From: Eubacteriales bacterium
GTDB taxonomy: Bacteria; Bacillota; Clostridia; Oscillospirales; CAG-272
Assembly (NCBI GenBank): GCA_045533435.1
Contig: JAZSHT010000068.1
Coordinates: forward strand, 1 to 53,655
Length of the DNA stretch: 53,655 nt
Reading direction: 5' to 3'
A program made the translations under genes and the position numbers. The notes under the pieces are model-generated. The model worked only from the letters and a program-made list of their open reading frames with translations. It was not told where the DNA came from and ran no database searches. Positions 10,245 to 13,949 of this stretch are shown one piece after another. The stretch's first letter is position 1; every line of letters begins with the position of its first letter.

Positions 10245-10891
10245 TATTTTACATTCTCCTTAATTGATTTTATCACACATTCCGCAATCATTCTCATTCC
10301 GTCCTCATCGGGATGTAATCCGTCTGTCGTATTGTTGTAATAATTGTCATTTGCAAAATCGCTGCTAAATAAATCACATACGAAAAACTTATCCCCTGCC
10401 ACCTTAACGGAATTTTCAATAATCTCGTTAAACCTTATCGTTCTTTCCTTAACTGACGGATGTCTGTTTGGCATATTTATACAACATACAGTAGCACAAG
10501 GATGCTTTTCCTTTATAGTCAAAAGCGTTTTTTCATAATCACTTGCAAAAACATCATAGTCAATCATGCGCCCTAAATCATTAAGACCCATAAATACAAT
10601 TATAAAATCAGGCTCTGTGCCATCATCCCTTGATAAATAATTAACACGGTTAACTCCCGCTGCCTCTATGTCTCTGCCACTTAAATTGCCACCCGACCAG
10701 GAATTATTAACGCATAATTCAAGCCCAAATTCCTTCATAACCAAAGACCAGTATGTCTTTTCAAGAGGAAACGGCTCATCATAATAACAACGATTTCCCC
10801 AAATAGTAAAGTTTGCATTCTTATCGTTTGAAACACCCCAATATGTAGATACACTGTCCCCTAAAATTGATAACTTTTTTCCCTTTAACAT
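10244..10891 (-). CDS. SGNH/GDSL hydrolase
   Basis: LGDSVS, MGLND and DGLHPD motifs. Confidence 0.9.
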   Translation of the reverse strand: MLKGKKLSILGDSVSTYWGVSNDKNANFTIWGNRCYYDEPFPLEKTYWSLVMKEFGLELCVNNSWSGGNLSGRDIEAAGVNRVNYLSRDDGTEPDFIIVFMGLNDLGRMIDYDVFASDYEKTLLTIKEKHPCATVCCINMPNRHPSVKERTIRFNEIIENSVKVAGDKFFVCDLFSSDFANDNYYNNTTDGLHPDEDGMRMIAECVIKSIKENVK

Positions 10892-10978
10892 AAAATATCT
10901 CCTTAATTTTAAAACTTAATCTACTTTAATTATACATGCATGCGCATAAATTATCAACATTATTTTCCAAAAATAAAA

Positions 10979-11016
10979 CAAAAAACTCAGTCAAACCTAA
11001 GCGGTTCAACTGAGTT
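10979..11016 (-). terminator. rho-independent terminator after the four-helix-bundle/membrane gene pair
   Basis: AACTCAGT...ACTGAGTT stem with a U-tract on the minus strand. Confidence 0.6.
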
Positions 11017-11054
11017 CTAATTGTGAAAATTTGCATATTGCATTGATATCGAAT

Positions 11055-11501
11055 TCAAACGGGAGTGGCGTGGGATTCGCTTGGAGGGACATTGCTTGAA
11101 GTGTTCATTTTTATGTGTTTTGCGATAGATACGATTTCTAAAATAAAAATTACCAAATAATAAGCGTTCCATATATAGATGTTGACACCAAGTCCGCCTC
11201 CGATAAAAATCCCCATCGGTATAGCACCAAAAAGCAATATTGACAATATTGCATTGAAAATAGGATGGATTTTCATAAATACCTTTATTGCTGAAAGAAT
11301 GGCATCAATAAAATAGAAAATCAAACTGAAATAGGCAACTATCATTCCGAAAACCCAGAAAGCAAAAGATTTGCTGACACCTCCTTGTTCGCGGGCAGGC
11401 TCTGTTATCAAAGCAATAAATGAGCATATCATCAATCCAAAACTAATAAGACTTATGATTATTGCAAATATTGCTGCGCCTTTTGTAGATGTGTCTTTCA
11501 T
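11055..11501 (-). CDS. hypothetical membrane protein (4 TM)
   Basis: 148-aa hydrophobic ORF; RBS AAGGCGGTG; 20 nt downstream of the four-helix-bundle gene. Confidence 0.75.
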   Translation of the reverse strand: MKDTSTKGAAIFAIIISLISFGLMICSFIALITEPAREQGGVSKSFAFWVFGMIVAYFSLIFYFIDAILSAIKVFMKIHPIFNAILSILLFGAIPMGIFIGGGLGVNIYIWNAYYLVIFILEIVSIAKHIKMNTSSNVPPSESHATPV

Positions 11502-11521
11502 ATCCCCACCGCCTTTCTGGA

Positions 11522-11887
11522 TTATTTGTTACCTTGATTTGCATTTTGCTTCGCTGTTTGAATAGAACGGACAAGCAAGAATCTTATCGTCGAGCAATTT
11601 TTATCAAGAGATTTATATCTTGCCTCGTCTATATACTCACTTCTCCAAAGCATTTCAAGCCATTTACTTGTTTCATTTGTTTCCTTAAGTGCGATTTCAA
11701 GCTTTGCAATAAAATCGGCGCGACTATGAGCATATTTGCTTTCGGCAATATTTGCACAAATACTTGTCGCGCTTCTGCCGATTTGATTTGAGATAACGGT
11801 TTCGTGCTTTGAGCGTAACTCTTTTGTCAGCTTCAAAACTTCTACGGATAATTCCATAGACAGATTCCCGAGCTTATCCTCTTTCAT
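11522..11887 (-). CDS. four-helix-bundle protein (23S rRNA-IVS / S23 / Avd-like family, TIGR02436-like)
   Basis: Family signature QIGRSATSICANIAESKYAHSRADFIAKLEIALKETNETSKWL. Start is ATG 11887 (or GTG 11893) after AAGGTGG. Confidence 0.9.
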   Translation of the reverse strand: MKEDKLGNLSMELSVEVLKLTKELRSKHETVISNQIGRSATSICANIAESKYAHSRADFIAKLEIALKETNETSKWLEMLWRSEYIDEARYKSLDKNCSTIRFLLVRSIQTAKQNANQGNK

Positions 11888-11973
11888 AACCACACCACCT
11901 TTCTTAAACCAATTACATCATACTTTCGGTTAAAAATCAACTATCAATCAGTGAAACAATCAAACGACTACCG

Positions 11974-12164
11974 CTCCGTTTGCGCGAAGCGCAACATCGT
12001 TTACGCCGTAGGCGTAACATCATTTGCAACTTGTTGCAACATCATTTGAGGCGAAGCCTCAACCTCGTTCATTTGTGCCGCAAGCGGCAAAGATGTTCCC
12101 GCTTCGCTCGAAATGATGTTGCGTGTGCTATGCAAACGATGTTGTGCCTGACGGCACAAATGAA
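11974..12164. repeat. dyad-symmetric array of eight short hairpins with conserved CATCRT/AYGATG linkers
   Basis: Units TTGCGC-GAA-GCGCAA, TTACGCC-GTA-GGCGTAA, TTGCAAC-TT-GTTGCAA and TTGAGGC-GAA-GCCTCAA, each followed by CATCRT or CCTCGT. Then four units in the opposite orientation separated by AAGATG, ATGATG, ACGATG. Confidence 0.85.
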
Positions 12165-12197
12165 AAAATCCTGAAAGCATCGCTTTCAGGATTTTTT
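12163..12197 (-). terminator. terminator directly after tRNA-Gln
   Basis: AAAAAATCCTGAAAGC-ATC-GCTTTCAGGATTTTTT perfect inverted repeat. Confidence 0.85.
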
Positions 12198-12270
12198 GGC
12201 TGGGGATCTAGGGCTCGAACCCAGACATACAGAGTCAGAGTCTGCTGTGCTACCATTACACAAATCCCCA
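12197..12270 (-). tRNA. tRNA-Gln (anticodon CTG)
   Basis: Minus strand TGGGGAT...GCAGA-CT-CTG-AC-TCTGT...CTGGG-TTCGAGC-CCTAG-ATCCCCA-G-CCA; cloverleaf with encoded CCA. Confidence 0.97.
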
Positions 12271-12281
12271 ATGCGACAATG

Positions 12282-12310
12282 ATTATATCATAACAATAAG
12301 AAATTGTCAA
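12282..12310 (-). promoter_or_regulatory. consensus sigmaA promoter of tRNA-Gln
   Basis: TTGACA-17 nt-TATAAT with extended TG. Confidence 0.85.
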
Positions 12311-12437
12311 GAATTTTTTATAAATAATTTACCAACGAATAAATAATTTCAAGAATTCAAAATATTGCCAAGCTGTTTACAATCTGAATTTTGTGTGCTA
12401 TAATTGTATTAACGACATAACACAAGGAGAAATCGTT

Positions 12438-13949
12438 ATGAAAAAAATTATAAGTTCAGTATGTATTATACTTGCATTGATTATAGCATTATTTTCTTTT
12501 TCGTCTTGTCAACAATCTGACAAAAGTGATGAATCGGGAAGCTTATCGGATTCAGTAAGCGATAATCCTGACAATAAAACACAAGAGGAGCTTCTTCTTG
12601 AAATGAACGAGCTTGACAGAGCCGATGAATTAAGTAGGCTATCTGATATTGCCATGAGTGAAAAGCTTTCATATAAAACAACAATGATAGGAGAGATACA
12701 AACAACCTTACAGGGCGATGTTGTAATCGGCGAAATAAAAGGCGAGAGCGCATATTTATTTGGCAATACTGATGATTTTGTGTATCAAGAAAAGCTTGAA
12801 AGCACATCTAAGTATAAAGGCGAGGAAAGCGTTACGACCTTAATTGAAGGCTATCAAAATGGATATATGTATATTTACAATAAGAATGGTAGCATTACCA
12901 CCACCTTTAAATCTCCTATTACCAAGGATCAATATTTGCAACATATGAAGGATATGGAAGTGAAGACAGATTTTGAGCTTGATAGAGAAGGCTGCAAGGA
13001 AATTACTGCTCAAAGAAACGAAGACGGCACATGGACTATCACCTATGCTAAATTTACCGAGGAAAGATTAGAGCTTTTATTAAGTGAGCTAAAAAATCTT
13101 GATGAGCAGCTTGATGAATCGTATTTAATATCCGATGTGAAAATTGATATCAATATTATGAGCGATTTTGCTATAAAAAACGCCACAATGGAGTTTGAAT
13201 TCACAAAAAATAAAGACATAAACGGTAGTGCCACAACATTATCAGCGACCGAAAATACAGAAGGAAAAAACAAGCTTTACATAGAGATATCGTACGACTA
13301 TAACCCACTTACAGTAATGGAAGAAATAGATTTAGGTAGCATAAGATATAAGGAAGTGGAAGACCTCAGATATTACTACAACATCCAAAAGAAGCTTGAT
13401 GAGCTTAAAAATAGCGAAGAAGCGAAGGTCGTAATTGGAATTAAAAGCGATGTAGATTATAGAGGAATGGTTAGTGTAACGGAAGAAACAGACAACATTA
13501 CCTTTAAAAATAAAGACGGAAAGCTTGAATATGAAATTGAGTCAATGTCAAACAGAGGCAACTACAAGATTTTATATGCCAACGGCTACCAAGATCTTAT
13601 AGATGAAAGTGGCACTATGCAGCATGAAGCGGTAAGCGAAATGGAAGCAAGAGCATACCTTGAAAGCATGCTGGATGTGGCAGGATATAAAATCGATATT
13701 ATAAGAAATATTGAAAAGGTAAGTGACGGCGAATACATATTTACACTAAAGCCCGGCGATAGCTCGTACAAGGCTATTGTGGATGCGTACGGTGGACATG
13801 TCGAAGAAAGCAGCTCCACACTAACAATTAAATTGCTTAACGGCAAAATCGTGTACTACCATTACACATTTTACGCAGATGTATATTTAAGCACCGTTTC
13901 CTCATATATGGAAATGGATCAATCGGTTGTCTGCACATACGAATATTAA
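12438..13949 (+). CDS. hypothetical lipoprotein
   Basis: ATG 12438 after AAGGAG; MKKII signal with FSSC lipobox; Ser/Asp-rich linker; beta-rich body. Confidence 0.8.
   Translation: MKKIISSVCIILALIIALFSFSSCQQSDKSDESGSLSDSVSDNPDNKTQEELLLEMNELDRADELSRLSDIAMSEKLSYKTTMIGEIQTTLQGDVVIGEIKGESAYLFGNTDDFVYQEKLESTSKYKGEESVTTLIEGYQNGYMYIYNKNGSITTTFKSPITKDQYLQHMKDMEVKTDFELDREGCKEITAQRNEDGTWTITYAKFTEERLELLLSELKNLDEQLDESYLISDVKIDINIMSDFAIKNATMEFEFTKNKDINGSATTLSATENTEGKNKLYIEISYDYNPLTVMEEIDLGSIRYKEVEDLRYYYNIQKKLDELKNSEEAKVVIGIKSDVDYRGMVSVTEETDNITFKNKDGKLEYEIESMSNRGNYKILYANGYQDLIDESGTMQHEAVSEMEARAYLESMLDVAGYKIDIIRNIEKVSDGEYIFTLKPGDSSYKAIVDAYGGHVEESSSTLTIKLLNGKIVYYHYTFYADVYLSTVSSYMEMDQSVVCTYEY

Follow-up and report, generated by a model that had tools for sequence, protein, structure and literature searches.

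What kind of element places an array of small hairpins and two short genes directly behind a tRNA gene? The question is raised by a locus on contig JAZSHT010000068.1 of the Eubacteriales bacterium assembly GCA_045533435.1 (Clostridia, Oscillospirales, CAG-272), positions 1 to 53,655 of which (53,655 nucleotides) are here called the window. On its minus strand, from 12310 to 10982, lie in order a promoter, a tRNA-Gln gene, a terminator, eight palindromic units, a weak promoter-like site, a gene for a four-helix-bundle (4HB) protein, a gene for a protein with four transmembrane (TM) segments and a closing terminator. A preliminary description of this locus had listed the parts from the tRNA-Gln gene onward in this order, and all were recovered on the minus strand where it had placed them. 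On our best reading, the locus is a single representative of a composite cassette that is widespread and sits immediately after the CCA end of tRNA or transfer-messenger RNA (tmRNA) genes. The cassette is best read, by analogy, as a relative of the 23S rRNA intervening sequences (IVSs) that carry the same protein family, behaving as a population of repeats of the REPIN (repetitive extragenic palindromic doublet) type. The pairing of gene and repeats, in gut bacteria and in other phyla, is apparently an undescribed protein-and-repeat element.

The 4HB protein matches PF05635 with 95.8 bits (cut-off 33.8; E 2.3e-27) and TIGR02436 with 100.1 bits (cut-off 24), and is similar at the sequence level to PDB entry 2RLD, which holds five chains (E 1.6e-24). 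By these scores it is a bona fide member of the TIGR02436/PF05635 family. Among 30 sequences of the genus, Q35, S42, N46, E49, I65 and E72 are invariant and R38 is conserved in at least 90%; R38, S42, N46 and E49 form the polar motif R-x3-S-x3-N-x2-E. A motif GxxRxxxSxxxNxxE was given by Zhang and Ye (2013; PMC3936711), whose survey of cas genes counted 18 such 4HB genes within cas loci. Work on DGRs (diversity-generating retroelements) relates the 4HB family to Avd (PMC10053308). An article on the Coxiella IVS describes the family as without known function and recalls the idea that the open reading frame (ORF) of the IVS serves mobility (PMC4990558). PADLOC matched neither the 4HB nor the 4-TM protein.

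The association between gene and repeats was evaluated across the genus. The source genome (G000) is a 2.24-Mb draft, 81% complete, in which the window is contig C33; other genomes of the genus carry G numbers, contigs C numbers and fetched stretches L numbers. PF05635 is present in 45 of 50 genus genomes, and stretches of 16 kb were examined about 81 of the first 83 matches outside the source genome, two at contig ends being left out. A strict detector, which calls runs of four or more units with perfect stems no shorter than 4 bp, loops of 3-6 nt and gaps of 5-14 nt, placed an array within 350 nt upstream of 31 of the 74 4HB genes with enough flank, compared with 32 of 775 other ORFs (odds ratio 16.7, kin not being independent), and downstream of 4 of 81. 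Using detectors blind to hairpins, which call either a period-7 tandem repeat or a 6-mer recurring three times at 16-27-nt spacing, a repeat array was found within the same upstream distance of 67 of 78 4HB genes (86%) and of 52 of 775 other ORFs (7%). The co-occurrence that the preliminary description had proposed to measure is thus far above chance, and the order is always array, then gene.

Upstream of the 4HB genes of the genus a common plan recurs: n units with a linker X, a centre, and n units with the reverse complement of X. A promoter and a Shine-Dalgarno (SD) sequence follow if the module stands behind a tRNA and terminator, and the SD follows directly if it stands behind a protein gene. 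The linker classes resemble variants of one motif; gtgaagt, for instance, serves as a linker of hairpin arrays and, in close variants, as a head-to-tail heptamer. Both forms occur among the four PF05635 genes of the source genome. Those on C33 (the window) and C36 have a bipartite hairpin array ahead and a small membrane ORF behind, and those on C133 and C185 lie between protein genes, enclosed by inverted arrays of tandem heptamers. The C133 copy (G000:C133:9300-10700) is inserted between dnaJ and prmA. Other copies in the genus likewise lie inside conserved strings of housekeeping genes: between recF and gyrB, between gyrB and gyrA, and after an rlmD-like gene.

The pairing extends to other phyla. 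Four plasmid-borne 4HB genes were drawn from a tblastn list, their flanks playing no part in the choice. All four (Nostoc punctiforme, Planktothrix agardhii, Treponema saccharophilum and Bernardetia sp.) have tandem heptamers upstream and inverted copies of them downstream, the latter being partial only in Bernardetia. In Victivallales, the order is tRNA, terminator, bipartite cttcac/gtgaag array, promoter and 4HB gene. The heptamer-flanked gene of the Planktothrix agardhii plasmid (L202) lies between DISARM drmD and BREX pglX, and that of the Nostoc punctiforme plasmid (L201) adjoins xisH/xisI. In the literature open to us, with subscription journals mostly outside it, no report linking TIGR02436/PF05635 to repeat arrays or tRNA flanks was found.

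Modules of this kind occupy the 3' ends of different stable-RNA genes. An alignment of the window's 4HB subfamily, searched against one genome per species, returned 583 relatives, the best 80 loci of which were analysed; the majority belong to Clostridia of gut and rumen, and some to Victivallales (58-61% identity). Among these best 80 of 583, a tRNA gene lies on the same strand within 600 nt upstream in 56 of the 69 loci with enough flank, and arrays precede the gene in 41 of 69 and follow it in 1 of 78. The nearest tRNAs belong to 16 types, all end in CCA and are followed within a few nucleotides by an A-tract/T-tract terminator, and the 4HB gene starts at a median distance of 266 nt beyond them. 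The terminator hairpin of the window begins at the CCA end of the tRNA-Gln; its outer part is common to modules behind other tRNAs, and its frame AAAAATCC..GGATTTTT recurs there. The terminator moves as part of the module, since its stems and loops are found again behind different tRNAs.

Thirteen arrays belong to the window's own class (67% mean column identity). They lie behind tRNA-Gln (G000, G054, G047, G013), tRNA-Trp (G063, G065), tRNA-Cys (G004), tRNA-Arg (G011) and, for one copy of G007, tmRNA; the other four have no tRNA in the available stretch. Homologous modules at these different 3' flanks share 72-85% nucleotide identity. The module behind tRNA-Cys in G004 encodes a protein 93% identical to that of the window and is 85% identical in DNA. 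Only two others among 19 genus genomes have a 4HB gene behind tRNA-Gln(CTG), both with other linker classes. The preliminary description had asked whether the block is fixed and syntenic in relatives: with homologous modules behind different tRNAs and tmRNA, and tRNA-Gln mostly free of a 4HB gene, it is not fixed. No clean empty site for the window locus was present among the tRNA-Gln flanks of the 19 genomes. These flanks are not syntenic with the GDSL, deacetylase and 518-aa genes, apart from weak LIPO518 matches in two of them.

Two side observations concern these flanks. The G007 copy (L120; G007:C228) lies directly behind the tmRNA gene, whose tag peptide is DNNKVAMAA, and no 4HB gene follows it. 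In array-free tRNA-Gln flanks (L020, L022, L023, L026, L017, L024, L027, L030) a conserved structured stretch of ~150 nt lies past the terminator. It opens with the reverse complement of the tRNA 3' end (tggctggggatctg...) and holds ccaaaatcg-loop-cgattttgg and gcttgcaagcgaaaggctagccgaag; in G020 it is doubled in tandem.

Gene content varies even between close relatives. In G054, the entire module of 1400 nt is 96% identical to that of the window, and three of its other 4HB loci differ from the source genome. At the first site, the 4HB gene of G054 lies between direct repeats of a heptamer array with an attached SD module, where the source genome has arrays only (L035 vs G000:C46:1160-1330), every heptamer being altered in concert (GTCAGCG/GTCAGCC in G054, GTTAGCG/GTTAGCT in G000). 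At the second, a 4HB gene between inverted AGTGGTC-type arrays corresponds to a gene-less bipartite GGGTATA/GGGGACA array. At the third, a 4HB gene with atttagc arrays corresponds to a short attacata array, so that the atttagc-class gene of G054 is absent from the same site in the source genome. As judged from this comparison of sequences, the 4HB gene was lost and the arrays were left behind. Among the 13 window-class arrays, one in G007 is joined straight to a homologue of the TM gene. In G012, an array, a promoter and a lipoprotein ORF follow tRNA-Gln. The gene following the 4HB gene is highly variable among loci, and the TM gene recurs among the other fetched loci in G054 and G007 only, in line with the variable cargo envisaged in the preliminary description.

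Arrays form a large population in the source genome. The strict detector finds 54 of them, compared with 1, 0 and 1 in three block-shuffles; the array of the window is therefore one of many and not special to this locus. After merging, 46 of 50 lie outside crude ORF calls, usually just past the end of a gene or just ahead of an SD. What arrays of a class share is a linker of 6-8 nt and the closing base pairs, the stems changing from unit to unit; the linker classes are tatatcat, tatggaat/tatgtaat, atttagc, atttacc, gcgatat, atttcgc, catcat/cttcat and tcataac. Thirteen of the 54 arrays are matched by another copy with at least 90% identity, and one family comprises six copies. Many arrays sit at contig ends, so that the assembly was probably broken by them. 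In G000:C2:500-1100, tatggaat, cttcat and tatatcat arrays and CCCCTGT- and GACCAC-type heptamers are strung together over 600 nt in a mosaic resembling bacterial interspersed mosaic elements (BIMEs). In G000:C86:1870-1996, the last array hairpin is formed by the SD of the gene that follows and an anti-SD (TCTCCTTTCG-gagaa-CGAAAGGAGA), 3 nt ahead of the ATG, which suggests translational masking.

The size of a linker class was compared with the presence of its cognate gene, using exact three-linker patterns that, read backwards as a control, gave no counts in any of the 50 genus genomes. Three genomes reach 14 or more matches to the tatatcat pattern (28 in G000, 15 in G021 and 14 in G053), and each has a C36-type 4HB gene at 91% identity or more; there is a single match in the close relative G054, which has only a 43%-identical 4HB gene of another class. 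The atttagc pattern has 70 matches in G054 and 59 in G002, both with the cognate gene, and 66 in G007 with a close ggtaaat-class gene; the source genome has 20 matches and no cognate gene in its 81%-complete assembly. Expansion of a class together with its cognate gene is no more than suggestive, at the level of sequence, of action in trans.

The features of the locus are collected in Table 1.

Table 1. Parts of the cassette and of the preceding tRNA gene, with their positions in the window
Feature	Position	Strand	Basis or remark
tRNA-Gln promoter TTGACA-17-TATAAT with TG	12282..12310	-	12/12 consensus matches
tRNA-Gln, anticodon CTG, CCA end encoded	12197..12270	-	ARAGORN; Rfam tRNA 56.6 bits
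Intrinsic terminator hairpin AAAAAATCC...GGATTTTTT	12163..12197	-	arms 12163-12178 and 12182-12197, 16 nt, 100% complementary
Whole array	11980..12159	-	eight palindromic units, six of them perfect hairpins
Half-array A	12090..12159	-	three TT-stem-loop-stem-AA units, each followed by a linker CATCGT / CATCAT / CATCTT
Array centre	12063..12089	-	hairpin TGCCGcttgCGGCA and conserved spacer CAAATGAACGAGG
Half-array B	11980..12062	-	four perfect hairpins parted by ATGATG / ACGATG linkers; GNA loops on the plus strand
Promoter-like TTGATT-17-TGTAAT with TG upstream	11912..11940	-	read from the sequence; weak
4HB gene, TIGR02436 / PF05635, 121 aa	11522..11887	-	profile matches; conserved SD context gaaaggtggtg upstream
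148-aa 4-TM ORF (cargo)	11055..11501	-	four TM segments by hydropathy count
Closing intrinsic terminator	10982..11018	-	sequence scan

The promoter proposed ahead of the 4HB gene can be read in the sequence and is missing from the list of a consensus promoter scan, because its second hexamer has a G at position 2; relatives carry TGnTATAAT at the homologous place. Contigs from four bovine-gut metatranscriptome runs of two studies, 90-99% alike and hence from relatives, span the TM and 4HB genes (11023..11895). Three of these records stop at 11893-11895, leaving the array uncovered and covering the tRNA only in one small stretch, with DNA possibly present in the libraries. The contig ends are a faint hint of an mRNA start near the predicted promoter, and the non-coverage of the array counts as no evidence. 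No family of Pfam, NCBIfam or PADLOC matched the 4-TM ORF, and none of the 221 relatives of its product has a name. Rfam (E up to 10, positions 10500-12900) gave only the tRNA, four further rows lying far under the gathering score. In agreement with the preliminary statement that integrase, transposase and reverse transcriptase are lacking, none of six Pfam profiles (PF00589, PF00239, PF00665, PF01609, PF01797, PF00078) matched the window contig.

The array had been described as a tandem series of eight hairpins. Eight palindromic units are indeed present, arranged as two opposed half-arrays about a centre: units 1-3 carry 'catcRt' linkers and units 5-8 'atgatg' linkers, the linkers of half B being the reverse complement of those of half A. 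Units 2 (12135..12119) and 3 (12112..12096) are degenerate in the source genome, which leaves six perfect hairpins, and unit 2 is a perfect hairpin in relatives. The spacer CAAATGAACGAGG is almost invariant across the 13 orthologous arrays. Folded as DNA, the array alone reaches z scores of -5.88 (minus strand) and -5.53 (plus strand), with none of 200 shuffles equally stable; folded as RNA, array plus terminator reach -9.81 and -8.58. The array thus folds far beyond shuffles on either strand, and the observation stands. Since the linkers of one half are complementary to those of the other, they pair between halves in both the minimum-energy fold and the RNAalifold consensus of the 13 arrays, while every unit forms a hairpin of its own; the outcome is a ladder of four-way junctions. 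As the pairs between linkers are invariant, they are uninformative. The unit stems do vary, and 12 of 47 consensus pairs show double compensatory changes. In the pair table of the same alignment, G-U and A-C mismatches on the sense strand number 16 vs 11, or 10 vs 10 without one column.

The loops are specific to one strand. Arrays of at least three units from the source genome and from loci L035-L200 yielded 942 hairpins, which were oriented by their linker. Triloops make up 561 of these, 281 of them being GNA as against 16 of the complement TNC; a C-G pair closes the loop in 687 of 942. GNRA-type tetraloops (GTAA, GCAA and GAAA) number 47. This bias of GNA over TNC means that one strand matters. 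Mini-hairpins of the d(GCGAAGC) type are unusually stable DNA hairpins, and by analogy the strand-specific GNA triloops closed by C-G would be a signature of DNA mini-hairpins. A motif GAGCG(A/T)AGCGA, which holds a GCGNAGC mini-hairpin, recurs within arrays of many linker classes (contigs C35 and C106 of the source genome; loci L042, L044, L045, L050, L066, L070, L075 and L105). It stands in for the normal hairpin at unit 3 of the window in 6 of the 13 orthologous arrays.

The earlier interpretation as a whole is supported in part and considerably extended: co-occurrence, variable cargo, a block that is not fixed and the lack of a reverse transcriptase or RAYT match in the 81%-complete genome have held, and a simply tandem array has not. 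We assign a probability of roughly 45% to the reading, drawn from sequence comparison, that the locus is an IVS-like selfish module whose array is read as single-stranded DNA, whose oligomeric 4HB protein binds the linkers and whose gene-less arrays are derivatives. The cassette would consist, in order, of a terminator, a bipartite mini-hairpin array, an outward promoter with a conserved SD context, a TIGR02436 gene, variable cargo and a terminator. Its working form would be single-stranded DNA, the inverted halves giving each strand one readable half. The palindromes would snap into very stable GNA mini-hairpins and so set the conserved 6-8-nt linkers side by side. Solved relatives of the protein, Avd among them, are pentamers, and the 4HB protein, presumably oligomeric as well, may bind the repeated linkers; the head-to-tail heptamers around other family members may be the same kind of site without hairpin spacers. 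Binding could either control the promoter of the cassette itself or aid copying or recombination of the array to new sites. Gene-less arrays would be left-overs or non-autonomous derivatives, comparable to solo long terminal repeats or miniature inverted-repeat transposable elements.

A broader claim, which we regard as doubtful, would have TIGR02436 proteins act in trans, throughout bacteria, as the partners so far missing for arrays of short dispersed repeats, both the hairpin-plus-linker arrays in gut Clostridia and the STRR-like (short tandemly repeated repetitive) heptamers in cyanobacteria, spirochaetes and Bacteroidota. Every paralogue would recognise a heptamer-like motif particular to it, presented by single-stranded nucleic acid wrapped about an oligomeric ring. 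Protein and array would then be a new kind of element that propagates itself, settling at the ends of genes for stable RNAs (the 3' ends of tRNA and tmRNA and, as IVSs, 23S rRNA helices), and its gene-less arrays would populate intergenic space.

Several observations weigh against the selfish-module reading, and many of them are what its main rival leads one to expect. According to this rival, which we consider somewhat improbable, the arrays are genome-wide structural repeats of the REP/BIME kind (REP, repetitive extragenic palindromic) joined to a platform of promoter and ribosome-binding site that is portable, and host processes maintain them. The 4HB gene would be their commonest passenger, a selfish small ORF whose function lies elsewhere, for instance with stable RNAs, and which does not bind the arrays. 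Gene-less arrays are far in the majority (54 arrays vs four 4HB genes in the source genome). Six of the 13 window-class arrays lack the gene that follows the other seven, and four of these six head unrelated ORFs from the same promoter and 'gaaaggYggtg' SD, the TM-gene homologue of G007 among them; this homologue and the lipoprotein ORF behind an array in G012 are both points in favour of a platform. The atttagc, atttacc, gcgatat, atttcgc and tatggaat classes have no cognate 4HB gene in the 81%-complete source assembly, and some genomes, several with only one or two arrays, hold low-copy arrays with no 4HB gene on the same contig. Isoelectric points in the family range from 4.9 to 9.5 (median 7.8) and are thus not uniformly basic, those of the heptamer-flanked C133 and C185 proteins being 5.0 and 5.7. 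A platform with a passenger would, however, not give the enrichment of 86% vs 7% with fixed order and distance. It is further opposed by a pairing that holds in other phyla with quite different repeats, heptamers, about the same protein family, and by a tatatcat expansion that coincides with the cognate gene in three of three expanded genomes.

Further points tell against the selfish-module reading on their own account. Gene and array are linked, so that co-variation is expected from descent alone and congruence between them is uninformative. Only 13 of the 54 arrays have a near-identical second copy, and perfect stems can be explained, without selection, by template-switch correction of quasi-palindromes. 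Nor was an enzyme for movement found: the preliminary description had suggested looking elsewhere in the genome for an HUH/RAYT nuclease or a reverse transcriptase acting in trans, and the source genome, in which absence is not proven at 81% completeness, has no match to RAYT (PF01797), reverse transcriptase (PF00078) or DDE_Tnp_1 (PF01609). Matches to the tyrosine recombinase, serine recombinase and rve profiles do occur in it, all of them on contigs other than that of the window.

It is distinctly unlikely, in our view, that the repeats act as RNA, in a leader or intercistronic element whose linkers or heptamers are bound in the transcript by the 4HB oligomer, in the manner of TRAP or CsrA, and through which translation of the 4HB gene and of other array-bearing genes is controlled. 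This would fit copies in operons in which the array reaches up to the SD with no recognisable promoter between (L077, L086, L107, L110; C64, C97, C86), heptamer arrays with an attached SD module ahead of both the 4HB gene and the next host gene, and a Nostoc preprint reporting that recF and recO expression is influenced by contiguous heptamers close to start codons (10.1101/2022.06.06.494920). It is at odds with the window and other tRNA-linked copies, where a strong terminator precedes the array and the promoter follows it. The 281 GNA triloops closed by C-G, against 47 GNRA tetraloops, fit DNA better than RNA on thermodynamic grounds, and there is no excess of G-U over A-C mismatches. Finally, a chance neighbourhood or a misread known system, such as a CRISPR array, integron attC sites or the remnant of a DGR, is highly improbable: a regular spacing with a period of ~22 nt and the relationship of the family to Avd (PMC10053308) point that way, yet the enrichment figures rule out chance. 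Besides tRNA no Rfam family matched, nor did any PADLOC model, and neither a reverse transcriptase in the 81%-complete genome nor an integrase on the contig was found.

Particular known systems were compared individually. A CRISPR array would have repeats of about 23-50 nt, unique spacers that are not palindromic, and cas genes or a leader: here the conserved parts measure 6-8 nt and the variable parts are palindromes of 11-19 nt, and neither PADLOC nor Rfam gave a match. An integron gene cassette was rejected on the lack of PF00589 on the contig, the three matches of the genome lying on C132, C144 and C81. The locus is not an IVS proper, being located behind tRNA-Gln with both inverted halves upstream of the ORF. 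A REPIN-RAYT system was set aside on stems that vary among units and arrays and on the absence of PF01797 matches from the 81%-complete genome.

By analogy, the locus would work most like an IVS or a REPIN population among the systems known. With the 23S rRNA IVSs that carry an S23p/PF05635 ORF in Leptospira and Coxiella it shares the protein family and a stable-RNA gene as host. In those IVSs the ORF is tied to inverted repeats that fold into a large stem, and their distribution is sporadic and suggestive of horizontal transfer (PMC4990558); the C133 and C185 copies have the gene inside inverted heptamer arrays. The window copy differs in its position outside the 23S rRNA gene, in having arms made of mini-hairpin arrays with conserved linkers in place of a plain 28-bp stem, and in its own promoter and cargo. 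The likeness to REP/BIME and REPIN-RAYT lies in short palindromes that occupy intergenic positions in tens of copies and form several families within a genome, in their inverted doublets, and in a low-copy protein gene flanked by repeats that outlive its loss; the source genome, with its 54 arrays vs 0-1 in shuffles and 46 of 50 outside ORFs, has such palindromes and doublets. REP sequences, in contrast, have conserved stems and the window-type arrays conserved linkers and varying stems; the units come in arrays of 3-5 per half, and the protein is a helical bundle of 120 aa, where RAYT is an HUH transposase.

Avd of DGRs has a homologous four-helix-bundle fold and a gene that adjoins a structured non-coding element (PMC10053308). 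A DGR was rejected for this locus, as the contig has no reverse transcriptase, the 81%-complete source genome none either (0 matches to PF00078), and no template/variable repeat pair is seen. Closer in appearance are the STRR sequences or contiguous heptamers of cyanobacteria, tandem heptamers near start codons and promoters, whose binding partner is 'yet to be identified' according to the Nostoc preprint (10.1101/2022.06.06.494920). Such heptamers flank the Nostoc and Planktothrix 4HB genes described above, and C133, C185 and further copies in the genus are bordered by heptamers in this style; in the window the short motif is spaced by hairpins instead of running head to tail. The MAEB motif of Burkholderia repeats one hairpin 2-12 times with conserved linkers upstream of genes, and its authors weighed protein-binding DNA, RNA and a repetitive element as explanations (PMC1950547). 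Its stem positions are conserved, unlike those of window-type arrays, and neither a bipartite inversion nor an associated protein gene is reported for it; Rfam has no match for the window array.

Stand-alone Avd-like or 'S23p' proteins are common, as the 583 relatives of the window subfamily in a single scan of one genome per species illustrate, and their genes occur inside cas, DISARM/BREX and housekeeping operons. To our knowledge, the function of these proteins is not known, and we know of no binding partner for the short tandem heptamers of cyanobacteria ever since their first description. A reproducible, directional pairing of the protein with class-specific arrays makes both problems testable, the question being whether each protein binds its own repeat. 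If so, protein and repeats would constitute a new system on a par with RAYT-REPIN. It would account for one source of broken assemblies and spurious CRISPR calls in metagenomes of the gut, and would provide a portable platform of terminator, array and promoter that targets the 3' ends of tRNA genes.

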